Positions 13,450 through 43,000 are shown, counted from the first letter of the stretch. The stretch is 64,000 nt of DNA from a virus (IMGVR_UViG_3300008262_000055); one strand, 5' to 3'. The notes: generated by a model not told the origin, from the sequence alone. Translations and numbers: made by a program.

Positions 13450-13712
13450 AATTATCTATTACTAAAAATAAAAATTTTATATCAGACTGTAAACGTTACG
13501 AAACTTTTATAAAAGAAACTAAAAGTTTAGAATTAGAAAAACTGTATAAAAGATTTTTATCTCAAGCTAAAAATATCGATGCTATCTCAGAATCTTTTGA
13601 ATTAATATCTAATGGTACTAGATTGAGTGAGGAACGAGCTCGATTAAAAAACATTAGAATAGAATTAGAAAAGAAAATTATATTGTTGAAAGAAAAGACT
13701 CGACAGACATAA
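13446..13712 (+). CDS. Hypothetical Lys/Glu-rich helical protein
   Basis: 88-aa ORF, ATGA-coupled; overlaps the hldD 3' end convergently. Confidence 0.65.
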   Translation: MKLSITKNKNFISDCKRYETFIKETKSLELEKLYKRFLSQAKNIDAISESFELISNGTRLSEERARLKNIRIELEKKIILLKEKTRQT

Positions 13713-14568
13713 ATTTATAGTCTCCTATTTTTTCAATTAATTTTGTGTTATCAGAGCAGGTATATCTCTGATATTGATTTATTAAATCTGTAGGAAATTC
13801 AATTTCTTCAATCGCAGCTGAATATTTTTTTGATATTAAATCAGCTACTTCACGGAAAGACACAGCAGTTCCTGTTCCTAAATTAAAGATTCCATTAAAA
13901 TTTTTATTTGAAGCTGTTAATTTTATGTTTACTATATCGTCAACACAGATAAAGTCTCTTTGAAAATTTTCACTGTTTTTAAAAATTTGTATCTTTCCCG
14001 TGTCTAAGGCCTGTTGACTAAATTTAGTAATAGGGCTTGCTTGATCTTTCTTGTGAATTTCATTTTTTCCATAGACATTAAAATATCTCCAACCTTGTAT
14101 GTTAGCATTGGGATAATCTAATAACGTAGAATACACATATTGATCAACTAACATCTTACTAGTAGCATACAATGACCTAGGGTTAAGAGGCTGTGATTCT
14201 ACAAATGTGTTGCTATCACCGTAGACTGATGCCGAACTAGCGTATGATAAAACAAAATTATTTCTTACAGCTTGGTCAACAAGCCAATAACTAGGCTGTA
14301 GATTGTATTGATCAATTTTATTTTGATCTCGTTCAGTAGTTGATGATATCGCACCTTCGTGAAATACAACATCAACTTTTAACCAATGATTCCAAATGCC
14401 ATAAAAATCCTGTGGAGATATAATTTCTGAAAATTTTAAATCCCTAAGATTGTTTTCTTTGTCTTTGTTTATATCATCAACAATTAAAATATCACTAATG
14501 GACCGACCATTTAGGCCTTTAACTATATTAGAACCTATTAATCCAGCACCGCCTGTGACTATAATCAT
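13678..14568 (-). CDS. hldD: ADP-L-glycero-D-manno-heptose 6-epimerase (start revised to 14568)
   Basis: IIVTGGAGLIG, HEGAISSTTE, YASSASVYG, YATSK, RYFNVYG..E.HK, RDFICVDD, GIFNLGTG: HldD/RfaD-specific SDR motifs. Confidence 0.9.
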   Translation of the reverse strand: MIIVTGGAGLIGSNIVKGLNGRSISDILIVDDINKDKENNLRDLKFSEIISPQDFYGIWNHWLKVDVVFHEGAISSTTERDQNKIDQYNLQPSYWLVDQAVRNNFVLSYASSASVYGDSNTFVESQPLNPRSLYATSKMLVDQYVYSTLLDYPNANIQGWRYFNVYGKNEIHKKDQASPITKFSQQALDTGKIQIFKNSENFQRDFICVDDIVNIKLTASNKNFNGIFNLGTGTAVSFREVADLISKKYSAAIEEIEFPTDLINQYQRYTCSDNTKLIEKIGDYKFMSVESFLSTI

Positions 14569-15053
14569 ACTAATGTAGTCTCCAACCATTGTTTACATTC
14601 TAACCAACTACAATAAATGTGCGACCTTCCGCCAGCACGGTCCCAGTCCTCGCAGTTAGATTTGCGATCGTCTATTAAGATATCGCCTGGCGAACAACGG
14701 ACCCATTTATCAAAACTATACGGCCCAAGAAATACAGGTATATCTGGAAAATGTTTGTGTGCCCAGAATACTTTATCTTGTGGTGCCCACGGCATATCGT
14801 TGCCTTTAGGGATAGCACTTAAGAAATATAATCCTGCGTTGTTATTATGTCTATAATTTCTACACCACTCAACTAACTCGTATGCTCCTTCTTTCACTGG
14901 CAACTTACTATACATACGCTGATCATTTTTTAATTTTTGCCAAGTCGTGTCTGGTAGTATATCGCCGTCTTTGAATAACGGTTCATTGAGATATTCTCTA
15001 GCGTAGCCAAACCAATCTGCTACTACATCGTCCATGTCTAGATAGATATTCAT
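14565..15053 (-). CDS. HAD-superfamily phosphatase (NT5C / 5'(3')-nucleotidase-like)
   Basis: IYLDMDDVVAD (motif I), FLSA (II), DKVFW (III), ILIDDRKSN (IV). Confidence 0.8.
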   Translation of the reverse strand: MNIYLDMDDVVADWFGYAREYLNEPLFKDGDILPDTTWQKLKNDQRMYSKLPVKEGAYELVEWCRNYRHNNNAGLYFLSAIPKGNDMPWAPQDKVFWAHKHFPDIPVFLGPYSFDKWVRCSPGDILIDDRKSNCEDWDRAGGRSHIYCSWLECKQWLETTLV

Positions 15054-15430
15054 TACTCTGCTTTCTTTTGACTATCACCAGGAGCAAGTCTGTAATTGTC
15101 TTCTACAGAATCAGCGGTACTGACTTCAAATACCATAGCACCGTCTGTCATTGCTTCTAGCTGATGAGGTTGTAACGGAGGATTATGCCACGTGTCTCCT
15201 TCGTTTAATTCTTGCTCATATATCTTGGCATCTTTAGTATCAATCCAACGCAATTTAAATTTGCCTGAATTTACAAACCAAGTTTCATCTTTTTTATTAT
15301 GAAAGTGCATAGAAAATTTATTTCCTGCTTTTTCAAACACTAATATTTTTCCGCAATAGTAATCGTTGGTGGCCCATATAATTTCAAAACCCCAACCCTT
15401 GTTTACTTTTCCAGTTAATCTTTCTGTCAT
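15053..15430 (-). CDS. Cupin, sugar (phosphate) isomerase-like
   Basis: KGWG.E..W, SMHFHNKKDETW (cupin motif 1), NPPLQPHQL (motif 2), FEVST; mannose-6-P isomerase / lyxose isomerase-like. Confidence 0.8.
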   Translation of the reverse strand: MTERLTGKVNKGWGFEIIWATNDYYCGKILVFEKAGNKFSMHFHNKKDETWFVNSGKFKLRWIDTKDAKIYEQELNEGDTWHNPPLQPHQLEAMTDGAMVFEVSTADSVEDNYRLAPGDSQKKAE

Positions 15431-16176
15431 TTTATTTCCTCTAATGTAGGTGCGTAATTTCCCAAATGTTGAACAGTAATACTAGCGGCCTTAACGGCAA
15501 ACTTTATAGCGTCATTGATATTTTTTGTATCACACCATTTGTATGCTAGGGCAGCTAAAAAAGTATCTCCAGCACCGCACACATCACTGACTTCTACAGC
15601 CGGTGCTGGATGATTAATATCATGATGTATAGCTGTTGCTCCTTTATCCCCCAGTGTTACTATTAATCCAGTACACTCGCTTTTAACTTTGCTGTATTCG
15701 GATTCGTTGATCTTTACCCAGGCTCCTTGTAATCGTTCTAAGTCTGTTTTCTTTGTATCTACAAATACAGGAATTTTAGTTTCAATTAGTTCCTCTATTA
15801 GCTTATAACTTACTGTTCCCTTGTTGTAATCGCTAACAACAATAGCATCGTATACAGGAGGAATGGCTGTCTCAAACTCTAAAGGCGTTGATACAACATC
15901 GTCGTCTATTCTTATTATGTGTTGTTTACTACGGAGGTCAATTAATCTAGTTTTTGTACCAGTTTCTCCGTGAAGGTAATTAATTTTACACCCTAGTGCT
16001 TCTAAATTACGTGCCACATTTCCTGCCATTCCTGGTTTAGTTTCTTCGTGACTAAACTTAAACACTGGCACAGGAGCTTCGGGACTAATTCTGTCCACAG
16101 ATCCGTATCTATATACGTCTAGACAGTTATCGCCTATCAGCAATATCTTGAATGATTTTAGTTGTTGAGTGTCCAT
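15427..16176 (-). CDS. hldA: PfkB-family heptose-7-phosphate kinase (HldA / RfaE domain I)
   Basis: IGDNCLDVY.YG...RISPEAPVPV, GMAGNVARNL, VSDYNKG, DVCGAGDTF. Confidence 0.88.
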   Translation of the reverse strand: MDTQQLKSFKILLIGDNCLDVYRYGSVDRISPEAPVPVFKFSHEETKPGMAGNVARNLEALGCKINYLHGETGTKTRLIDLRSKQHIIRIDDDVVSTPLEFETAIPPVYDAIVVSDYNKGTVSYKLIEELIETKIPVFVDTKKTDLERLQGAWVKINESEYSKVKSECTGLIVTLGDKGATAIHHDINHPAPAVEVSDVCGAGDTFLAALAYKWCDTKNINDAIKFAVKAASITVQHLGNYAPTLEEIK

Positions 16177-16522
16177 CTATTCTATCAAAAAATATAATTT
16201 CGTCGCAAACTTCTTGGCCTACAATAGGTTTGCCCATGTAATCGCTGCCCTTAACCATAGTGTCGCAGGCCGCAACAAGATTTATGAGTTCCAAATCAGT
16301 GTCGAATATCACAACTTCGTCAACTGCTTTTAGATTTTTGAGCATGTATGCTCGATATCGTTGATTGTTGATTGGTCGAGAAGACCCTTTTAGGCGGCGG
16401 ACACGATCGTCTGAATCAATGCCAACCATAAGATGATCTCCTAAACTTTTAGCATAGTTTAGAAGATCTATATGTCCCGGATGTAATATATCAAAAGAAC
16501 CGTTAACAAAAATCAGACTCAT
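16127..16522 (-). CDS. hldC: Heptose-1-phosphate nucleotidyltransferase (HldC / RfaE domain II; start revised to ATG 16522)
   Basis: NGSFDILHPGH (HIGH-type), VGIDSD..VRRLKG..RPIN, VDEVVIFD, GHSTT. Confidence 0.82.
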   Translation of the reverse strand: MSLIFVNGSFDILHPGHIDLLNYAKSLGDHLMVGIDSDDRVRRLKGSSRPINNQRYRAYMLKNLKAVDEVVIFDTDLELINLVAACDTMVKGSDYMGKPIVGQEVCDEIIFFDRIDGHSTTKIIQDIADRR

Positions 16523-16556
16523 GCTGTAATTATACAGCAAAGAGTCTCTTTGTCAA
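16523..16556 (-). promoter_or_regulatory. Consensus sigma70 promoter overlapped by two palindromes; probably leaderless transcript
   Basis: TTGACA (16556-16551) - 16 nt - TATAAT (16534-16529) - 6 nt - ATG; palindromes at 16538-16552 and 16523-16538. Confidence 0.8.
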
Positions 16557-22500: not shown

Positions 22501-23475
22501 ACCTGACTCCGCCGACGGTGCTGTTAATATCTGTGGATAAACTATTTGATAATCTGGTGCGTTGACTCTTGGAAAAATATAATCAACAATTACTTCTTGT
22601 AAAAATCTGTAACTGGCTATTTCTGGAATGCGAGATCCGTCGACTTGGAATACCCCATCGATATAATACTTTTGAGCAATACGTCTTGATTCTTCATTGC
22701 CGTTATTTTCTAAATCGTATATTAACGCATCTATCACATAACCAGAATCCCTAACACATTTTGCCGAATCGTAGGTATATCCTTTAAAAACTACTACTTC
22801 ATTGATTACTGAAGTTTTTCCTGTGGTAATAGCATTGAACGCAGTTTGTAACGGTGCTGTGGCAAAAGTAATGCTAGGTGTTGTTCTAACTATACCTGAT
22901 AATATAGTATTAGCTTGTGTTTGTGTTGTTGCTGCTACAACAGTAGCAGTGATTTGTACTAGGTCTTGGCATATTACCGCATCGGCCGAGTTAGCAGCAG
23001 GGAAGGTACGATTCTGTGTTAGAGTGTTGCCTTCTGTTTTTGTAACAAATTCGTTTAATACTATTTGTCCAATGACTTGTTTTAGATGTACATAGGCTGC
23101 GACTGTTTGTAGTCGATGAGTAGGATCAATACCTGTTGTAGCGTTGGCAAATCCGTAGAAGAAAAATCTAGCTTGATCGTAAGTAGCACTGTTACCGCCA
23201 TATAGAATATCGTAACAGATAGCGTCAATGGCATATTTGACATCTCTAGCACATTTTACAGGATCATGATCAGCGTTAGGATATTGTTCTGCAACCCAAG
23301 CATTAACTTCTGCTGCTAAGAAATTCTTATTAGACACTATCTGATTCTTAGCTGCAATTCTACTAACTGTAGCATTGCTAGGTTCGGCAAGTACTAGTTC
23401 GTTGGCATTTTCTCTGCCGTTTTCAATAATATCTACAACTTCGTTAAAGAAAGCATTATTTCTAGCTCTATAGAA
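16561..23475 (-). CDS. Giant Ser/Thr/Gly-rich virion fibre protein, C-terminal part (frame open to 23475; probably continuous with 23433..24560)
   Basis: More than 2,250 aa; KCxRD repeats, DADFEYGLQPTKWQ, four GxxYxxG..L.I.G..LGG..PAND repeats; the GTG at 23337 has no RBS. Confidence 0.8.
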   Translation of the reverse strand, partial: FYRARNNAFFNEVVDIIENGRENANELVLAEPSNATVSRIAAKNQIVSNKNFLAAEVNAWVAEQYPNADHDPVKCARDVKYAIDAICYDILYGGNSATYDQARFFFYGFANATTGIDPTHRLQTVAAYVHLKQVIGQIVLNEFVTKTEGNTLTQNRTFPAANSADAVICQDLVQITATVVAATTQTQANTILSGIVRTTPSITFATAPLQTAFNAITTGKTSVINEVVVFKGYTYDSAKCVRDSGYVIDALIYDLENNGNEESRRIAQKYYIDGVFQVDGSRIPEIASYRFLQEVIVDYIFPRVNAPDYQIVYPQILTAPSAESGAYARITELTNVFINFLEDGPTSLPAVSPRTVPYQTVEEQIVDSSKAYDPEAGTVILTLSNNLVNIIEQGVSSLPAKESAGYGLIKFQGAIRLEDLLLITNTSKNVVIYNFSTNTAGGEIVSEFDGDDDFVAFKQVTDRVVHLRLNSDTSTMDETDELQIFVESVEMKVRPYDFGTDAIERHRVAAPQSMLDADFEYGLQPTKWQAIGIARGYPSVYEIPGSDFEVTAITSDASFPSNGVGASTITVTTAAPHNLSTGTPVTVAGLDTAISGISRAEGAFVIVTIPTPTTFTYFAKSRVGTTSGTSLKTTYTQIRKGGFYTGASIGLPTINLLSNGTSGTFVTQFDTPTATSKFAVASGTVPSIGSPMNAAVGIGFGSQVTAVVGSGGVIVTPTVLGDYAPTLLGLTTLTVASTSGIVIGLGANDQTGSSTFVESLAGTDVTFTRPFSGAIIGNTTTYTELTGTNEISIGSAATFNVVGNSAGYISVSVNTGGSDYQVGDVLRILGSDLSGTSPANDLLITVATVSSGSILTADVISGTSLMSSGNETISGINNSSYTATSPDSTLGSSATFDVTRTGTGFSSVINAGGTGYVKGTEFLILGTVFTSNTTPANDVTITATQTTSTFTGLLQDATSLSGSSAQFNITRIGAAYTSLVVAFAGSGYAGGEIITIYGTQLGGNTPSNDLQIQVDNIGGSGEIIAASLVSGLVANENAPGVISQISTAGTGDDRTTISNVPVVIVPGSGINGEFTITRTASGYTNIIVSDGGTAYLPGNRIRILGSNLGGANTTNDAIVSVTSVTPSTGAITAATVTGLGVAGINLQLYSSVTVSEFTTATITSGTGLGFGTLATLQIIFQEPHGIPPGGSFIVTVSSDNGSNNHSLANGSFSATQIPTRNTITFQARSPGIITGAPISGVIYPRPDSFFTHRPFDGGVQLGTGGPQHGVQAIRQSKKYIRYQSGKGVMYTTGALFAPSYDVLTILATDVEVGATIEVTLGDNDHGLQRGAVIRLSGVTTGGYDGDYTVDEIVSERTFRIIATKRVGTRKPTLSFNCQISTLRWKGAVVRAGVFDDQNGIFWEYDGQTLWAVQRTSTKQLAGTISVNSGSNRVTGLNSRFRDQIKAGDAVTIRGMTHIVTHVDSQTSMTVNPDFRGVNNVSNAKMSLVSEVRVQQSDFNKDRLNGTGPSGYDLDITKMQMIGIQYSWYGAGFIDFMLRGSDGNYVFAHRMRNSNINTEAYMRTGNLPVRYEVSNYGSNSSLVSDITNTSTVVPVASIAGFPETGIVYIDNEMISYTGIDQTLNTLTGCTRSAQLDLFIAGANRNFTAGVAANHSAGTGVILMNNTTTPLISHWGSAFLTDGLFDSDRGYIFNYASTGLSVSTTKATAFLIRLAPSVSNAVVGDLGDRELLNRAQLLLKEIAVTSDTGTGGIIVEGVLNPQNYPANPSDIVWSGLTGVAAGGQPSFAQIAPGGSVNWAGGVAQPTATATALNTVTANVTVPNKTAFNRASGSSFVYATQASWNTSGATAGFSIAASDTKFQAGTTVSSVATSPSPVATTLGALTSSMQTFFRAVNTTFPQGNGVTATLFFNNQGYVPFPVNSRITVTGVNPNAYNGTYIVTGAGNNFVQYNSTATGANNNGTISTAYVAGQTTLNITEASWNNMTSNITQTGFSVTSAFPGGTTVSAVSGIQGTSPNRYYTVTMSQGLSSDLPLSTQTINTAFGGSRTTTNNLFFTAASWTALPVDVPVIGTATNDSGKFTGGTTITGISGLQTFGGVGYYSVVFGNNCIGTLAGGTTVTFDTIPYYTLFLSRTTAAAVNANATITLSLAQNTAVTNFVYFTQASWETLVSTYSAGAGTEVSDAKFAAGTRVATVSTLRTFGGTGYYSVTFTQTSNAVVAGASTITFKFGQPPYALPGEQVFSFISLPGSSDSLDLSELKELTNTTLGGRGTFPNGPDVLAINIFKVSGTAVNANIILRWGEAQA

Positions 23476-24560
23476 TTAAATTCTGCTAGACCTAAGAATA
23501 AAGCATTGTAATTTGTACCCAATGCTATGTCAAATTTTACTCCGTCAATAAGATATCCAATATCTCTTTCGCATTTAGTAGCGTCAAGGACTTCGTTAGC
23601 AATCCATCCAACGATTTCATTTTGTAGGTATGGTTTGTTTAGTGTTAGTAATCTTACTGCCTCAGGATACAGTGTTGTTCCTGCCTGATTCTGCATTACA
23701 TTGTTGATAATTAAATTTCTAATAAATTCATGACCTTCAACTTCTGCTTGGCCACTGCCGTCAACTTGTAATACACCGTTATCGTAATATTTTTGTATGG
23801 TAAAACGTGTCTGTTCATTACCACCGTATCTTAGATCGTGTAGATAAGCATCTAATACGTATCCTAGATCTCGCTGACATTTTTCAGAATTAAAAGTATA
23901 ATTTTCGTAAGTTGCTGCTTTATAAGCAATAGCAGGCATTGAAGATAGCCCGCTGGCAATAACTGTAGTAGTAACAGCAGACAATGTATCAATACGTGCC
24001 GCTGCGGTTGTTTCTGCCGACGGAGCAACTGTGTACATTGCGGCAACTAGTTGAAGGGGAGTGTAGGCCGCACGTGGAAATATATAATCTGTGATTAAAT
24101 CTCTTATAAATTCGTGAGTTTTAACTTCAGCTTGTCTGTCTCCGTCAACTTGCGGTTCAGTATTAATCCAATATTTTCCAACAACTGATCTAGTATCTTC
24201 GTTGCCGCCGTATCGAATATCGTGAATATACGCTGCTAAGACATAACCAATATCTCGTTTACATTTAGCTACGTCATAGGTATATCCTACAAATCCTGTG
24301 AAATTTCCTGCTACCTGTGTTGCTATCCAGGCAGTGGCTTCTTCTTTGATAAAATTAACGTTGTTTTCTAATAGGCGTACAGCATTAGGATATAAATTAA
24401 CGTCAGTGTCAATGTCTATCCTATAATTGAGATAAGCTGTTAACTCTGCTTTGATAAATGGCACGTTGTCATAAAAACTTTGCCATTCGTCTGGATACAA
24501 ATTGCCAAGAAAACTAATCCCCGGTCTAAATGTATAATTGTCTATTTTTTTCTTTGCCAT
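23433..24560 (-). CDS. Giant virion fibre protein, N-terminal part (three KCxRD repeats), frameshifted from 16561..23475
   Basis: MAKKKIDNYTFRPG start with AGGA RBS; repeat family continues in the downstream frame. Confidence 0.75.
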   Translation of the reverse strand: MAKKKIDNYTFRPGISFLGNLYPDEWQSFYDNVPFIKAELTAYLNYRIDIDTDVNLYPNAVRLLENNVNFIKEEATAWIATQVAGNFTGFVGYTYDVAKCKRDIGYVLAAYIHDIRYGGNEDTRSVVGKYWINTEPQVDGDRQAEVKTHEFIRDLITDYIFPRAAYTPLQLVAAMYTVAPSAETTAAARIDTLSAVTTTVIASGLSSMPAIAYKAATYENYTFNSEKCQRDLGYVLDAYLHDLRYGGNEQTRFTIQKYYDNGVLQVDGSGQAEVEGHEFIRNLIINNVMQNQAGTTLYPEAVRLLTLNKPYLQNEIVGWIANEVLDATKCERDIGYLIDGVKFDIALGTNYNALFLGLAEFNSIELEIMLSLTKL

Positions 24561-26808: not shown

Positions 26809-28617
26809 TTAGCTATTAGCAATCTTGATCAGCTTACCGTATTCGGGTAAAAATAGATATTCTATATCACTTTTAACCAATGTTTCAATAGCATCGTCTA
26901 GAGTTTCAACTAGCGGATCGCCACCTAGGTTAAAGCTGGTATTAAAAATAATAGGAATTCCTGTTTGATCGTAAAATTCTTTGATAAGATCGTAATAGTG
27001 AGGATTTTGTTCACGCTTTACGCTCTGTATTCTACAAGTTCCGTCAACGTGTATGATACTAGGAATCTTTTCAGCTATACCTGGCTTACAATTTACAGCG
27101 TACATCATGTGTGGTGTTTCGTCCATGCCACGTAAATCAAACCACTCATGTACATGCTCGTGTATAATACTGCCAGCGAACGGGCGGAAATATTCTCTAC
27201 GCTTTACAGTGTTAACAAAATCTTTGCCATCTGGAAATGTAGGATCAAATAGCACACTGCGATTACCCAATGCTCTAGGACCGTTTTCTGAACGTCCTTG
27301 GAATATTGTAACAATATTCTTTTCCCGCAACAATTTTACTACATCTTTATTAGTAGCATCTACAACTTCTCCGCCAGCATAAGATACTTTATCCAGTATC
27401 TCTCTTTCTGCGTAGGTATACTGCGGTCCTAGATATAGTGTGTCTAATTTATGCTTTTCACGACTATCTGCCATAGCATGCCAAAACATTAATCCAGCAC
27501 CCATGGCTGTTCCGGCATCATTACTGATAGGTTCAACATAGATATTAATACCTTCATCTTTTAACTGTTCAAGATAATGATAATTTGCCACACAATTTAG
27601 GCCATATCCACCGCTGATAACAACATTCTTCTTGCCACTGATTTCTACAGCTTTACGGATTAATCTAACTACTTGTTCTTGTGTTTGTGTTTGACACGCA
27701 TAGGCAAGATCTCTACGACTTTGGAGTTTAGTAGTATCTTCACCTTCTTGCGGCAACTCGTCAAGATAGTCAAATAAAGCACTATTAACTACTGAAGAAG
27801 AAGGATAGGCAGGCACGATTAGATTTCGATTAGACAACGGAACCTTCGAAGTAAAATCAAACAACTTAGGAATCTTATCGTTGGGTTTACCGTAGGGAAA
27901 TAATCCCATGGTTTTTCCTGCTTCGATAGATGAGAACCCACAATATTCGGTGACAGCCTCGTAGGTTTTAACTATACCTGCTCTATCCGAAAGCCATGCT
28001 TCATGGAACTCACCTGCTTCTCCAAATTGATCTGAAGGGCATTTGTCCATGTATGTGCCAGCAACAGCTTCGCGAGCACCATAATTTTTATAAAGAGTCT
28101 TAAACTGTGAAGGGTATCCGCAGTCAATAATTGACTCTACTTCCCACACCCATAAAGGTTCGTTGCCGTACATTAATTGAATAAATGTACCAGCACCGTC
28201 AACAATCAGTGCTACCGCATCATCAAAACCACTGCGATAAAACGCACAGGCAGCGTGAAGCTTGTGATGCATAAAACTTAAATCGACAACCTGAGGATGA
28301 TTGTGATTGTCTTCTTTGCGACTAATCAATCCTAGCTTACGTGCTAGACCAGTGTAAATATCATCGCCACTGAAATCAATTCTAGCAGCAGTATCTGTTA
28401 ATTTCTGTGTATGTGCTACAACTAGATAATCTAACTTATCGGTGTATTCTAAAATTTTAACCATTGAAGCTAGCGGGCCGCCATCGTATTTTTGACGGGT
28501 TAATCTTTCTTCTTCAATAGAAAAAACAATTTCTCCGTCTTTGAATAAACATACACCAGCATTGTGGCCACGTGCTATGGCTGCGATCCAACCGGAATTA
28601 AGTTTAGGTTCTGTCAT
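26809..28617 (-). CDS. O-carbamoyltransferase (NodU/CmcH/TobZ family)
   Basis: GHNAGVCLFKDGE...EEERLTR, HHKLHA, DGAG, GKTMGL.PYG, GGYGLNCVAN, GPRALGNRS, VKRREYFRPFA, HVDGTCRIQ, NTSFN. Confidence 0.93.
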   Translation of the reverse strand: MTEPKLNSGWIAAIARGHNAGVCLFKDGEIVFSIEEERLTRQKYDGGPLASMVKILEYTDKLDYLVVAHTQKLTDTAARIDFSGDDIYTGLARKLGLISRKEDNHNHPQVVDLSFMHHKLHAACAFYRSGFDDAVALIVDGAGTFIQLMYGNEPLWVWEVESIIDCGYPSQFKTLYKNYGAREAVAGTYMDKCPSDQFGEAGEFHEAWLSDRAGIVKTYEAVTEYCGFSSIEAGKTMGLFPYGKPNDKIPKLFDFTSKVPLSNRNLIVPAYPSSSVVNSALFDYLDELPQEGEDTTKLQSRRDLAYACQTQTQEQVVRLIRKAVEISGKKNVVISGGYGLNCVANYHYLEQLKDEGINIYVEPISNDAGTAMGAGLMFWHAMADSREKHKLDTLYLGPQYTYAEREILDKVSYAGGEVVDATNKDVVKLLREKNIVTIFQGRSENGPRALGNRSVLFDPTFPDGKDFVNTVKRREYFRPFAGSIIHEHVHEWFDLRGMDETPHMMYAVNCKPGIAEKIPSIIHVDGTCRIQSVKREQNPHYYDLIKEFYDQTGIPIIFNTSFNLGGDPLVETLDDAIETLVKSDIEYLFLPEYGKLIKIANS

Positions 28618-33961: not shown

Positions 33962-36900
33962 TTAACTATGTAAAAATAAGTTCATAGCCACCGGTACTCC
34001 ATTAATACCACCAATGAAATTCATCGGAGCAAGCACGTTAATGCGGCCGCCTGTGGTGGTTGTAATGTAGTCATTAGCTACAAATATCTGACCTGCTGTG
34101 AGAGTATTTACGTTCAGGGTACTGGAACCTGAACCAATTTGTGAAGCAATATAAGCCTTAACTGCTCTCTGAGTAGGTATAACTGAATCTGAATCCTGTG
34201 TAAAGAACGGATCTGTACTGAATTCAGTGATTGTAGCACCCCCTGTGCCCAATTCTACCGAGCCCAAGCTGAGCTCTTGTAGTCCTGCAATGTTAAACGC
34301 ATCTGCGTTTAGTGTAGCAGTACCTGTACTTTGTTCGACTGTGAATAATCCACCAACTCGGAAGTTACCGTCCTGGTCTGTTGATGTGTAGAACACACGA
34401 CCACCATTGCTTTCCACAGTTTCATTGGTTGGAATTGGATCAATCAGTGGCAATCCTGGATAATTTGTACTGGTGAAATTACCAGTACCAATATCTAAGA
34501 AGTCATGGCCTGTTAGTCGAACCTGTGAATAACGTATCCTAATTTCAAAAGGATCTTCGTGTGGCACAGCTTCGGGTATTTCAATAGGTGGGCTTACCTG
34601 TAATCTAGCTGTATAAGGCCCGGTTCCTAGTAGTTGTGTAACAGTGACTAATTTATAGAACTGTCCAGGTAAACTGTTAAATTCAACGTTTGATCCTGGT
34701 ACCGGTATAGAATATAATCCCTTAACGTCAACATAGCTGCCATTTTGGAATATATCAGCATAACCATCTCCAACTACCGAACCTGTAGCCACTTCCCAAT
34801 CAGCACCCCTAGTGATAAATGTAGGATTCGCTAGTACACCGTTGCCTACTCGCACTGTATGTGGTGCTTCGTAGGTATTATTAGGATCTGTGACAGTTAA
34901 CGCAGGCGGAGTTACTGAACTATAACCGCTACCTGGTTCTATTACTCTAAATTCCACAATCTTAGTATCAGCAACTCTAGCACGTACATAAGCTCTTGTT
35001 CCGGTTACCAATGCTGCCGGACCTGCTACTGTTGACTGCGGAATAATCCATAATGGAGATCCGTTTGGATTGCCAAATATTGGTCTTCCTGTAGTAGTAT
35101 AAGCAGCAGTACCCTGTGTCCAAGTACGGCCATCCTGTGATTTCCAATGTGCTGTAGAAGAAGCAGATCCTGTTGCTACAAAGGTACCTTGCCCGTATCC
35201 TACTTTACCAACAGTGATAGTGTTTAATACTCCGGTCCAACTAGTTCCATCGTTGCTAACAGCAATATTAGATCCTGTAGAACTCACAGCCACAAACACA
35301 TTATTTCCATACGCAATACTGCTCCAGTCGGCGAGCCCTGTAAGAGCAGCCGAAGTCCATGTAATACCGTCTAAACTATATGCCGAGGTTACTGATCCAG
35401 GAGCACCTGCCGTAGAAACAGCAAAGAATCTGCCTTTACCGTAGGTAATGCTTGGCCAATTTGTACGTGTAGGTAAATTATTAGCACCGTTAGCCCAAGT
35501 TGTACCATTAGTAGATACTAGTGGAGTGGCAGAATCCGCTCTAACAGCAACAAAACGACCTCCACCAAACGCTACAGATGTTACATCACTAATTTGCGGT
35601 ATAGTTGCTGAGTTCCAAGTTACTCCGCCGTCTGTACTATAAGCTGCTCCTGTGGCAGCATTTCCTAATGCTACAACGTAGGAAACTCCGCCAATATCCC
35701 CACTGGCTATCGCTGTCCATATGTTGATTGATGGTAGAGTAGATGTTTGCCAAGTTGTACCATTGGTTGAATAATATGCTGTGTTAGTTGATACTCCGCC
35801 ATTCGCCAGTAGTATTACAAAATTACCACCCCTGCCTTTGCCTTCATAGGAAAATGTTAATATTTCTCCGACTACTAACCCTGGAGTTGAATCTACGGTT
35901 TCGATACGTATTCTAAGATCATTGGCAGGTGTTGTTCCTCCTAATGAGGTGCCTAAGATGGTCAACAAATTATTATTAACATAATTTTGTCCGGCTTGAT
36001 TTAAAGTAACAGTATATGTTTCACCATTTCTAGTTATATTAAATGTAGCACCGGTTCCAGCACCGCCTGAAGCAGACACATTGGTAAATGTTTGTCTTAC
36101 ATTGGCATAAACAGCATCTGATTGACCAACTACTGAGCCTCCTGAGACGCTAGGAGAACTTTCGGTAGGTGCTGCTACTGTTACTCTTGGTTCAATGATG
36201 TATAATGATGAGGGATCTGGTGCTACAATAGCTGTACCTGGCACAACATGATCCCATCCACTAGTGCCAGTTGACTCTCTATAAACTCCTGCTAGTTTAG
36301 AACCAGCATTGTAGGTGTTGATATAACCATATTGACCTACACCAGTTCCGGATTGGATATAAATTCTCATACCAATATAAGCTGAACTGGTTTGATCGTC
36401 AGTGGCTGCTAGGGTAATTGAACTAGTTGTTCCACTTTGAGCAACGTTTTCTGAACTTAGATAATCAAGGCCGCCAAATTGTCCTGAACTGTCGTCATTG
36501 TCTAACAATCTAACTTCAAAAATACCGCCATCTCTAGTCTCATTACCAACAGTAGTAAATGATGTTCCTGGTCCGTTAAATGTAAACGTGCCTGAGGTAT
36601 AATCAATACCAGCATTTTGATATTCAACACGTAGTACCTGTTGACCGTTGGTTAATACTTTTGTGATCAGTGCTTCTTCGTATCGGTTATTAACTATACC
36701 TGTGATTGCTGTTTCTGTAGCATCAACCCCTTCTGCTACACAACCGTATGTTCCGTATGAGCTGTTACCGTTAGTAGCACGTATCTTACCACCGTCTTCT
36801 GCTAGATACCCAATATGTCCGTAATATCCAAACACAGATACAAGTTCTGTTCTACCTAGATTGGTACACCATACACCAATACCGTCTGAAATTACTTGTG

Positions 36901-39900
36901 TAAAATCGTTACTGACGATAGATTTATTACCGCCGTTGTGTAGATCTCCATCGATCTTACATCCCACACAGGCTGTACCAAATGTTGTTACGTTTTGTAC
37001 ATAACAAGATCTTGTGGTAATCCATACTCGTTGGTCATTAGGGCCCCAGCCTGGATCAAGACTTACGTAAGCACCGGCTGTTGGTCTATAAGTTCCATAT
37101 GCGTTAGGTCCAACTAATGTTCCTGTTAATCCCTGTACAGTCATATTTCTAACACCTGTACTGTTTCTAACCAAGAACATGTTTTCTGTTATAGAACCAG
37201 TCACGCCATTAACATACCATTCTGCTGATGTTAAAGTTCTATAATTACCAGTGTAGACTAAATCAAACTTGATAGCATCGATGTATTCGCCAACATCTCT
37301 AGCACAGGCAGCAAGACTGTAAGTGTAAGATGGGTAAGTTAACGCAATGTACGCATGAACTTCAGCAATAATAAATTGTCTATTCAATTCTAGTTGACGC
37401 ACCGCCGCATACACATTATAACTTGATGCTGCAGCATTTGAGCCAGCCATTGTAGGAGCACTACCTACTGCGTTTAGATAAAAATCAACATGATCATAGG
37501 CATTTTGAACTAGTGTTTCAACTAGCGTGCCTTCTGTAGCAGTTGCGAAAGGCTTAGTTTGACTCTGTGTTTCAGTATTTGGATTTGTACCAGTTGTTGT
37601 TTTTGTTACAGTTGTACCTTCTACAATATCAGCAATAATAGCTTTAATTCGTGTAAGAGCATCTAAACTCTTAGGAACATCAGTAGCATCAATCTGACTA
37701 GCAGCAGGTCTAATGTTAGTAGAACGTAGTTCGTCGCCTACTACCGCAGTGTCTACAGGAACAATAATAGGTAGCGTTTCATAGAATACACCAGTCTTAA
37801 CTAGTATAGTTCTTTGAGGTTTGACTTCTGCTCCCACACTTCCTAATGTACCGCTAGAAATTGCTGTAGTAATTAGTGTTTTTAGATTAGCGATTTCTGT
37901 AAATGAAGAATCTTCAGCTACATAATCAGTGTCAATAATCTGTAAAATTCTATCATTAACAGGAACACTGTTAGTAACTTGATAATTTGTTCCAGGTGCT
38001 GTGTTGAGTAATACACAGGTGTTAACTAAAGTATTGACAGCATAGTTTATGGCTGCTACTGTTTCTTCTTTTTGTCCTAGGCCGTAGAAAGTTGAAGCAT
38101 TTGTAACATATTCAACCGCAGCCTGTCTAGATCTTACGTTTCCGCCGTGACGGATATCCCATAACAATGCGTCAATGATTAAACCTACATCACGCTCGCA
38201 CTTGGTTGTATCATAAGAAAAACTAGATACAAACGGTGAAATGTTGTTTGTGATTTGATAGTTAATCCACTGTACAGTTTCCCTCTGTACAAACTGTCTA
38301 TTAATTTCTAATATAAAAGCAGCTTCAGGATTTCGTGTCCCTTTTTCAATTTGATCAGCTGCGTATCTTACAGTTCTCCATGGTTTATCTAGTGTGATAC
38401 CGTATGTCGGTGCCACTTCATCAGTTCCGTCAAGACTTACATAATACAACTGATCAACTTCGCCCCAATATTTCCACTCGGGTGCTGCGGCACTATTGAC
38501 AACTAGAACTTGTCCATCTGAACCAATAGGTAATCTAGTTGGTCCAGCACCGCCGTAATAAACAAGATCGCCCTGTGTAGTTAATACCGACGATTCTTGA
38601 CCGTTGGCTAATAGATTCCAGTATGTTCCTGAAATGTCTACGTCTGGTCTGTTTGTTGCTGTAGCAGATGTGTGTGCTAATACACAGATATAACTGTTAG
38701 GTCCATAACGAACAGCATCACCTAGTACGTAACCATAACCGTTAGCCCATGTTCCTAACCAACGAATGCCCGGATTTAATTGTTCCCAATAGGTTAGATT
38801 AGGTGGTTTCTGATTGTTATTATCTTCTATAGCAACATAGGTGTAACCGCTGAGTCTTACTACGTCTCCAACTTTATAGTTGGTAGAACCTGACCAGTCC
38901 TGTTGAAATTTAAATGCTGTGGTAAACAGATCCCAATTCTGAGCACCTGTGACTGCCTCTGTTGGTTTGATATTACTATGGTTAGTGACTGCTACATACG
39001 CATATCCACCATAGGTAACAATGTCACCAGGCTGATAAACACTTGACGAATTCCAACTGTTTTCAAATTGTAATCCTTCTAGGAATTGTGCCCAGTAACC
39101 CGAATCTTCATCTTGTTCAAATGTTCTTGATACACTAGAAGTATGTTTTTGTAAACAGATGTAGACACCGTTACCAGTCTTAACAAGATCGTTTACTTTA
39201 TAATTTTGATCTACAGGATCCCACGCACCTAAGTATTCAACACCTTGGTTGAAATAATCCCACTTGCTTTGATCTGCTTCAAGACCCAGTGTAAAGGTTG
39301 CTGCGGCAGGGTGTCCTTCATTACATACATACGTAGTTCCGCCAAAAGAAACTACATCATTAATTTTATATCGAGTTGACGGAGCCCAAGGACCTTTCCA
39401 GTCAAACGCTTCTGAGAACTGATCCCATTTATTAATATCTGCCTTTTGACCTGCGGTTAGTCTATCTAAACCTTCAAGTCCCATTGCGGCAGTTGGAGCA
39501 GATATGTGGCCTAGATTACAGAGATATGTGTTGCCGCCGTACTTGACAATATCGTTAAGTCTATATCTGGTGTCAGTGGTCCAGTCACCTCGCCATTCAA
39601 ATCCCTCAGCAAACTGATCCCATTTAGACTGTGTACTATCGCCCAAGTCAAGGTCTACTTCAAGGCCATCGCTGGCGTTAGCAGCAGATGTATGACCTAC
39701 CAAACAGATGTATAGCTGTCCGCCGTATTTGACTATGTCGTTGACAAAGTATTCTGTGTCGACCGTCCAGTCACCTCTCCATGCTTGTCCATCGCTGGCT
39801 TGATTCCAACGTGCTGGGAAGTTATCCGCATCTACATAGAAATTTGAATCAGCTGTATGCCCAATTACGCAGATGTAAACTTTACCGTTTACTCGAACTA

Positions 39901-39982
39901 CGTCATCTTTAAGGTAAGAGGTACCCGCAGCCCATTCGCCTTTCCATATAAATCTAATTCTACCTAATTTAAACTCTGCCAT
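33962..39982 (-). CDS. Giant tail fibre/spike, 2006 aa
   Basis: Eight N-terminal CBM5/12-like W.G.W...Y...D.V..GG..Y.C...H repeats, beta-helix-like core, two CxRD repeats, Asp-box (YS.DG.TW) repeats; TAAATA at 40007-40012. Confidence 0.85.
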   Translation of the reverse strand: MAEFKLGRIRFIWKGEWAAGTSYLKDDVVRVNGKVYICVIGHTADSNFYVDADNFPARWNQASDGQAWRGDWTVDTEYFVNDIVKYGGQLYICLVGHTSAANASDGLEVDLDLGDSTQSKWDQFAEGFEWRGDWTTDTRYRLNDIVKYGGNTYLCNLGHISAPTAAMGLEGLDRLTAGQKADINKWDQFSEAFDWKGPWAPSTRYKINDVVSFGGTTYVCNEGHPAAATFTLGLEADQSKWDYFNQGVEYLGAWDPVDQNYKVNDLVKTGNGVYICLQKHTSSVSRTFEQDEDSGYWAQFLEGLQFENSWNSSSVYQPGDIVTYGGYAYVAVTNHSNIKPTEAVTGAQNWDLFTTAFKFQQDWSGSTNYKVGDVVRLSGYTYVAIEDNNNQKPPNLTYWEQLNPGIRWLGTWANGYGYVLGDAVRYGPNSYICVLAHTSATATNRPDVDISGTYWNLLANGQESSVLTTQGDLVYYGGAGPTRLPIGSDGQVLVVNSAAAPEWKYWGEVDQLYYVSLDGTDEVAPTYGITLDKPWRTVRYAADQIEKGTRNPEAAFILEINRQFVQRETVQWINYQITNNISPFVSSFSYDTTKCERDVGLIIDALLWDIRHGGNVRSRQAAVEYVTNASTFYGLGQKEETVAAINYAVNTLVNTCVLLNTAPGTNYQVTNSVPVNDRILQIIDTDYVAEDSSFTEIANLKTLITTAISSGTLGSVGAEVKPQRTILVKTGVFYETLPIIVPVDTAVVGDELRSTNIRPAASQIDATDVPKSLDALTRIKAIIADIVEGTTVTKTTTGTNPNTETQSQTKPFATATEGTLVETLVQNAYDHVDFYLNAVGSAPTMAGSNAAASSYNVYAAVRQLELNRQFIIAEVHAYIALTYPSYTYSLAACARDVGEYIDAIKFDLVYTGNYRTLTSAEWYVNGVTGSITENMFLVRNSTGVRNMTVQGLTGTLVGPNAYGTYRPTAGAYVSLDPGWGPNDQRVWITTRSCYVQNVTTFGTACVGCKIDGDLHNGGNKSIVSNDFTQVISDGIGVWCTNLGRTELVSVFGYYGHIGYLAEDGGKIRATNGNSSYGTYGCVAEGVDATETAITGIVNNRYEEALITKVLTNGQQVLRVEYQNAGIDYTSGTFTFNGPGTSFTTVGNETRDGGIFEVRLLDNDDSSGQFGGLDYLSSENVAQSGTTSSITLAATDDQTSSAYIGMRIYIQSGTGVGQYGYINTYNAGSKLAGVYRESTGTSGWDHVVPGTAIVAPDPSSLYIIEPRVTVAAPTESSPSVSGGSVVGQSDAVYANVRQTFTNVSASGGAGTGATFNITRNGETYTVTLNQAGQNYVNNNLLTILGTSLGGTTPANDLRIRIETVDSTPGLVVGEILTFSYEGKGRGGNFVILLANGGVSTNTAYYSTNGTTWQTSTLPSINIWTAIASGDIGGVSYVVALGNAATGAAYSTDGGVTWNSATIPQISDVTSVAFGGGRFVAVRADSATPLVSTNGTTWANGANNLPTRTNWPSITYGKGRFFAVSTAGAPGSVTSAYSLDGITWTSAALTGLADWSSIAYGNNVFVAVSSTGSNIAVSNDGTSWTGVLNTITVGKVGYGQGTFVATGSASSTAHWKSQDGRTWTQGTAAYTTTGRPIFGNPNGSPLWIIPQSTVAGPAALVTGTRAYVRARVADTKIVEFRVIEPGSGYSSVTPPALTVTDPNNTYEAPHTVRVGNGVLANPTFITRGADWEVATGSVVGDGYADIFQNGSYVDVKGLYSIPVPGSNVEFNSLPGQFYKLVTVTQLLGTGPYTARLQVSPPIEIPEAVPHEDPFEIRIRYSQVRLTGHDFLDIGTGNFTSTNYPGLPLIDPIPTNETVESNGGRVFYTSTDQDGNFRVGGLFTVEQSTGTATLNADAFNIAGLQELSLGSVELGTGGATITEFSTDPFFTQDSDSVIPTQRAVKAYIASQIGSGSSTLNVNTLTAGQIFVANDYITTTTGGRINVLAPMNFIGGINGVPVAMNLFLHS

Positions 39983-40024: not shown

Positions 40025-43000
40025 TTAACCTAAATCCCTACCAACTTCTTGCCCGTCTAAGTTGCTGTTAAAAGCGTCTGAAAACATGCTCATAGCCAGC
40101 ATCATACCCGAAGCCCCTTTTCTCATATTCATATTTCTTGGTAGATTTACGTAGGTATTTGTAGTACTACCAATATTATTTGGTCCACCTATTCTAACAG
40201 TACCAGCAATTAATGTACCTGTAGCTGCTTCTGAACCTCCACCAGAAATACGTCTTTCAATATAGGCTTTAATAGCCCTTTGTGTAGGAACAACATTATT
40301 TGAATCAGCAGCAAATGTAACATCTGTTGAAAATTCACGTATAACTACGCCCGTACCACCTACACGAATCCCGCCTAATCTTAGTTCTGACAGTCCGCCT
40401 AAGTCAAAATAGTCAGCACTAATTGTAACTACACCAGTGGCTTGCTCAACAGCAAACAGCTCTCCAACTCGGAAGTTACCGTCCTGGTCTGTTGATGTGT
40501 AGAACACACGACCACCGCCCCTGTAATAAACTTCATTTTCGGGTGCTAGATTTATAAGATTAGTAGTGGGATAATTTGTTTGGGTAAAATTACCTGTTCC
40601 TATCTCTAAGAAATCGTGACCTGTTAGTCGAACCTGACTGTATTTTTCACGTATTTCTACTGGTGAATCATGTACAGGTGTTGTAGTTCTGTTGAAATCT
40701 GGACCTACCCTAATTGCTAATCTGTAGTTACCAAATGAACCACTTAATACCTGTACTGTTAATACTCTATAGACTCTGTTATCTGTACCATCAGATGCTA
40801 CCGCAGCATCATTGTCAGCTAACACTAGATATTTGTTTAATCCTGCTACCGCGGCACTTGGATTAGTTAATGGATATTCTCTTTCTAACCACGATAATCC
40901 CAATCTAGAAGAATAAGCTGTTGAACCGGTTCCAGAAAATAGAACAAACTTTCTATTAGCAAATATTATATGAGCCCAGTCGTCAGTAGATGGAGCTGCT
41001 GCGGCATCCCAAGTATTGCCATCGTCTTCTGACAACGCTATTTGATTACTGTTTCTAGCAATTAATATTATATGATTATTACCGTAGGCAAGATCTGACC
41101 ATTCTGCTGTGCCGGTTATAGTTCTTAGCAACCAGGTTTGACCGTCTACGGAAATAGCTACCTTATCATTGTTTGTAGAAATTGCTATAAAATTGTTAGC
41201 ACCGTGTTTAACTTTGATCCATTGAGCACTAACTGGTAACGATGCTGTTTGCCATGTTACTCCGTCATCGTCGGAATACAACGTACTGGTTGAACCGTTG
41301 GAAATAACTACCCATTTTCCATTTAGATAATCAACTGATGACCAATTAGCATTAGGTACTGTTATTGTAGTCCAGCTAATTCCGTTGGTGCTTCTTGCGA
41401 ATACTGTGCCATAAGCTACTGCTATGTACACACCGTTACCAAATTTTATGTCACGCCAGTCTCTTTGTTGAGAAATTGTAGTGCTAGTCCACCCTTCTCC
41501 GTTAGCTGAATATACTATTTGAGCTAATCCTTCGCTTTGGTAAGTAATTCCTACAAATTTATCAGTACCAGCAGTAACTCCGGCCCATGGTCCCGACACC
41601 GGCAGTACTGATGGTAGCCAATTAATGGTATTAATTTCAAAGTTAGCACCAGTTCTAACTATTCTTGGCATGCCATCAACAATTATATTGCCACCTAATT
41701 CGTAAACATCAGCGTATCCGTCGCCGGATACTGTTACTCTGGTTGTTGATGTCTTGTATCCAACACCTCGGTTAAGGAATGTAGGGTTAGCTAATACTCC
41801 ATTTCCTATCCTAAATTCGTATTCAGGATTTGATGTTGATACAGGATCGCTAAGAGTAAACACCGGTTGAGCATTATAACCGCTACCGGGTTCCCATATT
41901 TTTATTGACTGTATTCTTCCGCCTGTTATAACAGGTCTGCCTCTAAATGTTGCCCCATATTGAAATGTGTCAACAGTCCCAGAATCTTCGGATAGTAGTA
42001 CCCATCTTCCTCTATCAGCAGTGTCTGGGACAAATGCTAGGGCATGTCTATTAAGACTGCCGCTGTCTAATTGTTTTAATTCCCAAGAAAATCCTCCGCT
42101 ATCAGATACTGCCGCATACTGTGTAGAGGAAGAACTGATCGCAACAAATAATCCTTGATCGTAGCTGATTCTACGCCATGCTGTGTCAAACGGCAACACT
42201 GATAGATACCAAGTAAGCCCATCAAAGCTGTAAGCTACCGCATTGCTATTTGAGGATATTGCTACAAAGCGATTGTTTCCATAGCACATATCAGTCCACT
42301 GCGGTTGTGTTGAATCGCCAAACGCAGGGATATCTGAACCTGCCGTCCATGTTACTCCCGAATCGGTGCTAACTGCTGTTTTACCATTAGTTGAAATTAT
42401 AACAAATTTGTTTTTACCATGAGCTACAGCTCTCCACGGTGCTGATGTTGGTGTCGAGCTTAATGTCCATGAAGATGTATTTACTATTACCGATGTTGTT
42501 AAGGTTGGTGCGGTAGCTACAAACGTTCCGTTACCGCCTGCAATATTAGTACAATTAGAAAATCCAAGAGCAGTACCCACATCGGCTACACTAAAGGTAA
42601 ATGATCCAGAGATCCATGTTGCTACCATAGTAGAAGTTTGACTAGTTACTGCTGCTATACGAGATCCGTCCCAGGCCACTGAGGTATAAAGTTGAGCATT
42701 GTTAGCAGAACTAGCTACAGATAGATTAGTTTCGTCATTGCCTATATAGATAGCTCCTACACTACCGTCTGCTGGTCTTCCTGCGGCAACAAACCTATCT
42801 ATCTCTTTGATTCTTTTTGTAACTATATCGTAAGAACCAATTGTTCCATATTGACCTGTACCGGTTCCGCTGGTGATAATTATTCTAGCACCAATATAAT
42901 CAGCTGAGAATCTTTCGTCGTTTGAGGCAATAGTAATACCGGTAGTATCGCCGCCTTGAGCATTGTTACCGGTAGACTGGAATCCGCCACCGCCTAAAAA

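Follow-up and report, generated by a model that had tools for sequence, protein, structure and literature searches.

A five-gene operon on a viral contig

We analysed a stretch of 64,000 nucleotides from the virus IMGVR_UViG_3300008262_000055 (the window, from here on) that carries, on the minus strand, a cluster of genes predicted to make ADP-heptose. Five open reading frames (ORFs) follow each other from 16522 to 13678, coding for a nucleotidyltransferase (NT), a kinase, a cupin, a HAD-type phosphatase and an epimerase (Table 1). The NT and kinase genes overlap by 50 nt and the remaining junctions are ATGA, TAATG and ATGA, so that the chain under one promoter given in a preliminary description of this DNA can be read directly in the sequence. 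The family assignments made there (HldC-like, HldA-like, cupin, HAD and HldD) were also upheld by profile and PDB searches. The content of the window is otherwise mostly T4-like tail, baseplate and giant fibre genes.

Table 1 Features of the window and of related loci
Feature	Size	Position	Strand	Basis or remark
HldC-like nucleotidyltransferase (NT)	131 aa	16127..16522	-	RfaE domain II type
HldA-like PfkB kinase	249 aa	15427..16176	-	rfaE_dom_I match
Metal cupin	125 aa	15053..15430	-	Cupin_2; phage-specific family
NT5C-like HAD	162 aa	14565..15053	-	PF06941
SDR epimerase (putative HldD orthologue)	296 aa	13678..14568	-	TIGR02197, PDB HldD matches
Sigma70-type promoter TTGACA-N16-TATAAT		16529..16556	-	12/12 consensus match
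GT9 heptosyltransferase-like GT-B enzyme	313 aa	28614..29555	-	PF01075, fold
NodU/Nol-like carbamoyltransferase		26809..28617	-	Carbam_trans_N, Carbam_trans_C; phrog_1601
Giant proteins	1835-2258 aa	16561-23337, 33962-39982, 40025-45532, 46251-52586, 52706-59176	-
Small HAD (phrog_1238)		L001:5737-6081, L030:4434-4742, L033:8366-8671		no window copy

For the NT gene the ATG at 16522 is a likelier start than the upstream TTG at 16540, since the latter falls within the promoter. This ATG is positioned only 6 nt past the -10 hexamer and for this reason the mRNA of the operon is probably leaderless or nearly so. Both hexamers are invariant, with a variable spacer, in five relatives (L050, L031, L033, L034 and L036). 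The -10 region sits in an inverted repeat, GCTGTA-TAAT-TACAGC (window 16523-16552, minus strand), and the divergent relative L070 has another sequence upstream of its NT gene that is palindromic too (ACTATA...TATAGT). The palindrome of the window may serve as an operator or form a 5' hairpin on the probably leaderless mRNA.

Near-identical operons were found on three IMG/VR contigs of 270 kb, 364 kb and 364 kb, both 364-kb ones being 100% complete according to CheckV; psbA was found in none of the three. These contig sizes together with the T4-like structural genes identify the source as a jumbo T4-like myovirus of aquatic metagenomes. A search of the phage collection at the DNA level gave a sole match of 176 bp, and the relatives were found by protein. 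Distant versions of the module, with 37-51% identity, are present in the marine cyanomyoviruses P-SSM2, P-SSM5, S-CAM1, S-CAM3, S-SM2, S-SSM7, S-T4 and Sf-FS3.

Kinase, nucleotidyltransferase and epimerase

The epimerase scored 271.7 bits against TIGR02197 (heptose_epim), just under the cut-off of 274.6, and its four top PDB matches were all HldD, with E. coli 1EQ2 (E 1e-55) aligned over the full length including the YxxxK motif. It carries GGAGLIGS, the GxxGxxG of SDR enzymes, and YATSK (YxxxK), and its prediction as an HldD orthologue (ADP-glycero-manno-heptose 6-epimerase) is well supported. The NT matched PF01467 (CTP_transf_like) with 53.8 bits, belongs to phrog_7878 and shows the HPGH and STT motifs; this homology makes it a presumed heptose-1-phosphate adenylyltransferase, the choice of nucleotide being deduced from the family. 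The kinase (PF00294 with 70 bits, phrog_8133 with E 1e-88) has the GAGD motif of PfkB enzymes, and rfaE_dom_I was its top-scoring family by a wide margin. The homology is clear at the family level, and we infer from it that the substrate would be heptose-7-phosphate, phosphorylated at position 1. It is highly probable that the operon makes ADP-heptose.

The bacterial ADP-heptose pathway for the lipopolysaccharide core (GmhA, HldE or HldA plus HldC, GmhB and HldD) comprises the same five chemical steps that we assign to the operon. Kinase, NT and epimerase are homologous in both, the split between HldA and HldC is found in some bacteria, and a GT9 enzyme is present as consumer, a likely one in the phage. 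The phage version differs in that its kinase falls some 65 residues short of rfaE domain I, and in being virus-encoded and placed next to fibre and tail genes. Above all, the enzyme predicted for the first step is a cupin, and the candidate phosphatase is NT5C-like instead of a HAD-IIIA GmhB.

Cupin and SIS-fold GmhA exclude each other in viral heptose clusters

The cupin lacks the hallmarks of GmhA (TIGR00441, PF13580), which are a SIS or SIS_2 domain with the motifs GNGGS and HFA, and matches cupin families only, so it would act like GmhA without being a member of that family. To compare how both genes are distributed we used tblastn on 160 IMG/VR viral loci chosen by the cupin and 80 chosen by SIS GmhA. 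Within 8 kb of the cupin there was a kinase in 131 loci, an NT in 137 and an epimerase in 109, and SIS GmhA was found in 0/160 (best tblastn E 0.4). The loci chosen by SIS GmhA contained a heptose kinase (76 of 80), an NT (37) or an epimerase (33), and the cupin was found in 0/80 (best tblastn E 1.7). The same was seen in 50,697 phage records, of which 35 have the cupin and 13 a GmhA match, with zero overlap. When loci were found by the kinase the cupin was present in 11/11, and Caulobacter phage Cr30 has the epimerase, a glycosyltransferase, the kinase and SIS GmhA but no cupin. The preliminary description had raised the question whether the cupin and gmhA are mutually exclusive in phage heptose clusters, and in both sets of loci they are.

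It had also stated that the window contains no gmhA. In agreement with this, when the 33 remaining window ORFs of 88-602 aa were scanned with Pfam they matched ten families, neither SIS nor HAD among them; the scan did not include the 1152-aa sheath gene or the five giant ones. Absence from whole genomes was judged on close relatives, and positive controls responded in each whole-record profile search. No match to the gmhA profile (TIGR00441) was obtained in P-SSM2, S-CAM1 or Sf-FS3, nor was a SIS_2 or SIS domain in 11 IMG/VR records. Completeness is at least 97% for six of the 11, and two of the six are the full 364-kb genomes from the clade of the window. A canonical gmhA or gmhB elsewhere in the genome would have spoken against the preliminary description; in neither of these two genomes was one found. 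Supply of the isomerase by the host seems unlikely for the cyanophages, because 79 of 101 picocyanobacterial species genomes sampled had no gmhA-like match at E 1e-5 (none of the 101 had one at the equivalog cut-off).

Two types of genome provide information about the step at which the cupin might act. Most cupin clusters have a PfkB kinase and most viral SIS-GmhA clusters a GHMP kinase, but Synechococcus phage Bellamy is an exception, with its cupin located between a GHMP kinase and an NTP_transferase gene. The Bellamy cluster (L030, record 167422-177693) consists of a class II aldolase, a small HAD, the GHMP kinase, the cupin and the NTP_transferase, followed by an RmlD-like gene, a GMD-like gene, a GT4 glycosyltransferase and a carbamoyltransferase, and it has the appearance of a GDP-(6-deoxy)heptose-type pathway in which the cupin would be used as well. 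The presence of the cupin with both the ADP-beta and the GDP-alpha types of kinase and transferase sets therefore fits a shared upstream step and not an enzyme of one specific nucleotide sugar. Besides, the cupin and the kinase occur without any SDR of HldD grade in two genomes whose completeness is at least 97%, a finding that weakens a role dependent on the SDR.

Fold and conserved residues of the cupin

The cupin gave a match to Cupin_2 and weak ones to Lyx_isomer, PMI and WbuC. Its AlphaFold2 (AF2) model (pLDDT 95) was compared with the structures of Swiss-Prot proteins, and the top 17 matches were all C-terminal domains of type II phosphomannose isomerases (PMI) of the ManC/CpsB, AlgA, XanB and RfbM proteins, with TM 0.76-0.79 and a root-mean-square deviation (rmsd) of 1.7-2.7 A over 112-123 residues (target residues about 357-472). 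A profile of 59 members of the cupin family aligned with the PMI domain of E. coli CpsB by hhalign with 83% probability (E 9e-6), placing H42, H44, E49 and H89 on the Q/H/E/H ligands of CpsB and the N-terminal WG motif in register. The nearest sugar enzymes in the PDB by profile were D-lyxose and D-mannose isomerases (E 2e-5, highest identity 26-27%). The fold alone is not decisive among cupins, since all of them score Z 13-16 in VIA-align (the Thermococcus PMIs 14.4 and the lyxose isomerases 13.5).

The four metal ligands are invariant in 151 cupin homologues found in a heptose context, as are K11, W13, G14, E16, Y25, K28, K47, E102, D111 and R114. The invariant basic residues would fit an anionic sugar-phosphate as substrate. 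The family is abundant, with 1388 close homologues, and its clusters in the ESM Atlas are 86-100% viral. Many homologues are named 'mannose-6-phosphate isomerase-like' by JGI, and one relative (P0136) reaches 31 bits on the Pfam PMI family PF01050. The cupin is also naturally fused to other proteins, as NT5C-HAD::cupin (P0136, L022:2217-3116), HAD::cupin, nucleotidyltransferase::cupin and cupin::Asp/Arg-hydroxylase-like, the fusion proteins being, taken together, P0136, P0193, P0210 (L024:647-1420) and P0144. In its T4-like phage the P0136 fusion has regA and clamp-loader genes as neighbours and no visible heptose genes nearby. In the PHROG database the cupin is phrog_7851, labelled 'cysteine dioxygenase', a label that we rejected as uninformative.

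Different phosphatases in the same slot

The HAD of the window passed the Pfam NT5C family (PF06941) with 26.4 bits, cut-off 24.8, and belongs to phrog_2643 ('5'-3' deoxyribonucleotidase'); a PDB sequence search with it gave nothing useful. It has D6-M-D8 in motif I (DMDDV) and an IDD motif. It is not of the GmhB type (TIGR00213), having no NCBIfam match and DMDDV instead of a DRDGT-type motif I. No GmhB_yaeD match was found in five related records, nor any small HAD of the P-SSM2 type in the window, which was searched for the latter by tblastn and not with an E. coli GmhB query or a GmhB profile.

Among the 160 cupin loci the HAD found with the cupin by tblastn was GmhB-like in 21 (35-38% identity to E. 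coli GmhB, with the DRDG motif), a small HAD-IIIA in 25 and NT5C-like in 3. The NT5C-like HAD was absent from P-SSM2, S-CAM1 and Sf-FS3, all of which bear the small HAD, and it was found immediately after SIS GmhA in two independent viral clusters (L209 and L249). As to the comparison of this HAD with gmhB suggested in the preliminary description, the slot holds a GmhB-like, a small HAD-IIIA or an NT5C-like protein depending on the phage. About 40 loci have no HAD near the cluster.

The comparison with IMGVR_UViG_3300021963_000157 (L033) was particularly informative. This contig is collinear with the window at 88% identity from 23415 to 15066, and the alignment resumes at 14568, the start of the epimerase, to run to 9001 at 88.7%. 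In the gap the window (15065-14569) has the 489-bp gene of the NT5C-like HAD and L033 the 306-bp gene of a small HAD, and the break coincides exactly with the borders of the HAD genes, as in a cassette swap of unrelated HADs. This in-place exchange between sister phages would be an unusually clean natural case of non-orthologous gene displacement. The operon is a recombination mosaic, because the kinases of the two phages are only 60% identical and the NT and cupin of the same operon 92% and 97.5%. The GT9 genes are 99% identical.

The exact swap, the exclusivity with the small HAD, the adjacency to SIS GmhA and the fusion to the cupin are strong evidence that the NT5C-like HAD serves the GmhB step, and we consider it quite probable that it is a heptose-1,7-bisphosphate 7-phosphatase. 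Two other phages show singular arrangements at this position. In a phage of 164 kb and 98% completeness, a gene of 184 aa (L007:7103-7657), resembling a methyltransferase by eye, lies between cupin and epimerase where others have the HAD, with a distant NT5C-like HAD about 80 kb away (L021). In L042 (8389-9057) the GmhB-like gene after the cupin has an internal duplication of 17 residues with a stop codon, probably an assembly artefact since the same gene is intact in L044.

A predicted HAD phosphatase annotated as phosphoheptose isomerase

In the records of cyanophages a gene of ~110 aa between kinase and cupin is annotated as 'phosphoheptose isomerase' (phrog_1238). It matched profiles of the HAD-IIIA type (TIGR01689, BT0820-type, TIGR01662 and HAD_PNKP) and has all four HAD motifs (DxDGT, TAR, KP and DDK), and it is not a SIS protein. 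We also considered that it could be a truncated GmhA, which was rejected on these same motifs and matches. The genuine SIS GmhA of Caulobacter phage Cr30 is phrog_14703, labelled 'unknown function'. We conclude that phrog_1238 is a predicted HAD phosphatase and its current name a misannotation; the cyanophage module would therefore also consist of NT, kinase, HAD, cupin and epimerase, without GmhA. Viromics papers have treated this label as denoting an auxiliary metabolic gene, gmhA (PMC9238414, bioRxiv 10.1101/2024.05.16.594516, PMC7378029), and later genome notes carry it on (PMC7378029). The 'gmhA' of marine viromics represented by phrog_1238 would thus be a HAD phosphatase, and the database error hid the pattern described here.

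A likely consumer of ADP-heptose

The window codes for a GT9-like protein and a carbamoyltransferase separated from the operon by 10 kb of fibre-like genes. The GT9-like protein passed PF01075 marginally (22.9 bits, cut-off 22), and a PDB sequence search with it gave nothing useful. Its AF2 model (pLDDT 85) had as top PDB folds the GT9 protein 3tov, WaaC, WaaF and the protein heptosyltransferase TibC (E 2e-11 to 7e-6), after which there is a sharp drop to folds with TM about 0.3. Of 80 viral loci with the GT9 gene, 79 also have the carbamoyltransferase, which in 73 lies downstream of it on the same strand, and in P-SSM2, S-CAM1 and Sf-FS3 the two genes directly adjoin the heptose genes. It is likely that this pair consumes the ADP-heptose.

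Candidates for the acceptor are the virion fibre proteins, the host envelope or surface glycan, and DNA, heptosylated phage DNA being already on record (bioRxiv 10.1101/2023.12.21.572611). The five giant proteins have 17-22% Ser+Thr and about 10% Gly, and are possible acceptors for the GT9 enzyme. A 375-aa ORF (23433-24560) shares repeats with two of them.

Proposed pathway and alternative explanations

We propose that the operon, transcribed by the host RNA polymerase from its sigma70 promoter, would provide a self-contained route from sedoheptulose-7-phosphate to ADP-L-glycero-beta-D-manno-heptose. The cupin, a phage-specific relative of the type II PMI domain with a metal site of three His and one Glu, would convert sedoheptulose-7-phosphate into D-glycero-D-manno-heptose-7-phosphate in place of the SIS-fold GmhA. 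This reaction is the seven-carbon homologue of the conversion of fructose-6-phosphate into mannose-6-phosphate. The short PfkB kinase would then phosphorylate O-1, the NT5C-like HAD would take off the 7-phosphate in place of the HAD-IIIA GmhB, the HldC-like enzyme would add AMP and the HldD orthologue would epimerise C-6, the product feeding the GT9 heptosyltransferase and carbamoyltransferase pair. It would be a known pathway with non-orthologous displacement at two steps, widespread in aquatic phages (hundreds of contigs). The comparative evidence supports both displacements suggested in the preliminary description, the cupin for GmhA and the HAD for GmhB, and those of its proposed checks that computation allowed were all favourable. 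Considered in full, this explanation appears to us moderately probable, and much the same can be said of the assignment of the cupin as sedoheptulose-7-phosphate isomerase.

Several observations weigh against the proposal. Two of the central enzymes fall below the cut-offs of their models, since the NT scored 124.3 bits against TIGR02199 (rfaE_dom_II), under the equivalog-domain cut-off of 181.5, and the kinase, 249 aa against a profile length of 315, scored 162.5 bits against TIGR02198 (rfaE_dom_I) in 3 stretches, the cut-off being 345. The window cupin itself reaches only 16.7 bits on PF01050 (cut-off 23.6), and in VIA-align the top match was the cupin domain of CapF (Z 15.7, rmsd 1.8 over 110 residues). 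H42 and E49, two of the metal ligands, are missing from one branch of the family (P0124 in L271 and L272, P0187 in L273 and L274); the two members of this branch that were examined are outside heptose clusters, preceded in one context by a 1114-aa multi-glycosyltransferase/methyltransferase protein and in the other by a NUDIX gene. The exclusion between cupin and GmhA is partly confounded by lineage, to which the different kinases of most clusters (PfkB with the cupin, GHMP with SIS GmhA) indicate a contribution. Regarding the phosphatase, the NT5C family is otherwise known for phosphatases of deoxynucleoside monophosphates, and about 40 of the cupin loci, as said, lack a HAD.

The main rival explanation is that the cupin acts downstream, on the nucleotide-heptose, as an epimerase of the CapF or RmlC style or in tailoring, and that a host GmhA or a promiscuous host isomerase carries out the isomerisation. 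The CapF match in VIA-align, a weak match to the WbuC family (TIGR04366, 22 bits, cut-off 42) and the location of the cupin directly after the epimerase in 57 loci, which recalls the SDR-cupin fusion of CapF, point in this direction, and a gmhA-like gene does exist in 22/101 of the picocyanobacterial genomes sampled. However, an independent tailoring cupin should sometimes join clusters with SIS GmhA, and it was in none of the 80; the nucleotide and the anomer would have to differ between the two types of kinase and nucleotidyltransferase that accompany it; and it is present in genomes at least 97% complete without an SDR of HldD grade. Moreover, its profile is far nearer to the lyxose and mannose isomerases than to CapF (E 0.12), and most genomes sampled from the host family have no gmhA. 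We regard the downstream role as unlikely, although it survives better than the others.

A different objection concerns only the phosphatase. The NT5C-like HAD might be a 5'(3')-deoxyribonucleotidase of the nucleotide pool that is in the operon by accident, the 7-phosphate being removed by a host phosphatase. This would agree with the Pfam and phrog_2643 matches, with the clusters devoid of HAD and with the replication genes next to the NT5C::cupin fusion P0136. E. coli gmhB mutants are, besides, only partly defective. Nevertheless, the gene shows translational coupling to both its neighbours, a HAD of another family has been swapped precisely between the same gene borders in the sister phage, the NT5C-like form is absent where the small HAD is present, and it is fused to the cupin in P0136 and follows SIS GmhA directly in independent viral heptose clusters. 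An accidental presence seems to us improbable.

The closest folds to the cupin are type II PMI domains and, with the JGI label of many homologues and the GDP-mannose-4,6-dehydratase-like and RmlD-like genes of the Bellamy cluster, they could indicate an ordinary phosphomannose isomerase, acting for a mannose-based nucleotide sugar or boosting the GDP-mannose of the host. This is very improbable, as the near-equivalog HldD of the operon works on C-6 of a heptose and mannose offers it no substrate, a GT9 heptosyltransferase is present, and a canonical GmhB-like phosphatase is found next to the cupin in 21 loci. A route with kinase plus phosphatase is a hallmark of the heptose pathway, while mannose pathways use a mutase. 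Finally, an oxygenase or a non-catalytic partner, as the annotation of phrog_7851, the oxalate decarboxylases and quercetinases among the top PDB sequence matches and the oxygenase genes interleaved in the Sf-FS3 cluster might suggest, can practically be discarded, given that those matches span generic metal-cupin motifs only, that no thiol substrate or oxygenase-specific motif was identified, that the label accounts neither for the strict linkage with heptose kinase and NT nor for the exclusion of GmhA, and that the strictly conserved metal site with several Lys/Arg argues for catalysis on an anionic substrate.

Relation to known systems and significance

The type II PMIs (PF01050, C-terminus of TIGR01479; ManC/CpsB, AlgA, XanB) and the minimal archaeal PMIs of Thermococcus (7ZVY and 7ZVM) are like the phage cupin in fold, WG motif and ligand positions, and the proposed chemistry is the same, from a ketose-phosphate to a manno-aldose-phosphate. 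They differ in that the cupin has only 20-25% identity to them and His instead of Gln as first ligand, and in that it is a stand-alone protein of 125 aa in a heptose context with a proposed substrate of seven carbons. The C-terminal cupin of CapF/WbjC, a UDP-sugar C3-epimerase fused to an SDR reductase, is also a metal cupin working beside an SDR, and the phage cupin often neighbours an SDR gene in related phages; it is nevertheless not fused to the SDR and is also found without an HldD-like one.

Nucleotide-sugar clusters of cyanomyoviruses were already known, as the preliminary description said. Sullivan et al. 2010 (PMC3037559) described NT, kinase, cupin and epimerase as co-occurring lipopolysaccharide (LPS) genes of unknown functionality, with no role assigned to the cupin. 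This 'LPS gene cluster' of the large marine cyanomyoviruses P-SSM2, S-SM2 and S-SSM7 (T4-GCs 304, 305, 307 and 308; PMC3037559) is homologous to the operon in these four genes, which in P-SSM2 have 37-44% identity to those of the window and the same GT9 and carbamoyltransferase partners. The window differs in having the NT5C-like HAD after the cupin, whereas the cyanophages have the small HAD before it, in its co-directional epimerase and in the GT9 pair split off by fibre genes. The routes that provide sugars for glycosylation of phage DNA (arabinosyl-hydroxycytosine in RB69 and DLP3, PMC13326640; heptosyl-5-hydroxymethylcytosine, bioRxiv 10.1101/2023.12.21.572611) share the logic of kinase, HAD and nucleotidyltransferase leading to a GT-B enzyme. 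They use SIS-type isomerases or E. coli metabolites, though, and glycosyltransferases that resemble the T4 beta-glucosyltransferase and not GT9, and no cytosine-hydroxymethylation genes were seen next to the window operon. No account of the displacement of GmhA by a cupin was found in the full-text literature, subscription journals not being covered.

The GmhA step is a textbook reaction of LPS synthesis and a target for antibiotic adjuvants. If the proposal is true, aquatic phages widely carry an analogue of GmhA with another fold for this step, the first committed one on the way to heptose. Sedoheptulose-7-phosphate is an intermediate of the pentose-phosphate pathway and the Calvin cycle, which cyanophages are already known to manipulate, and the phages would divert it to a sugar for which most sampled picocyanobacteria lack the isomerase gene. 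One can go further and suppose that the phage cupin family is a second, unrelated fold for sedoheptulose-7-phosphate isomerase which, with interchangeable HADs, would make aquatic myoviruses autonomous for ADP-heptose even in hosts without the pathway, such as most of the picocyanobacteria sampled, and that the GT9 enzyme and the carbamoyltransferase would attach carbamoyl-heptose to the Ser/Thr-rich fibres of these phages or to some other target in virus or host; for this wider picture we consider the balance to be even.

Other genes in the window and in related clusters

Among the structural genes the window also encodes the N-terminal domain of a TnsA-like endonuclease (PF08722, E 4e-22) and a deoxynucleotide monophosphate kinase (PF21448). 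In Sf-FS3 (L003, record 97904-107185) the heptose genes are interspersed with four genes of 2-oxoglutarate (2OG) oxygenases of the prolyl-4-hydroxylase type and with another carbamoyltransferase gene, shorter than the first, and in P-SSM2 one oxygenase gene of this type adjoins the epimerase.

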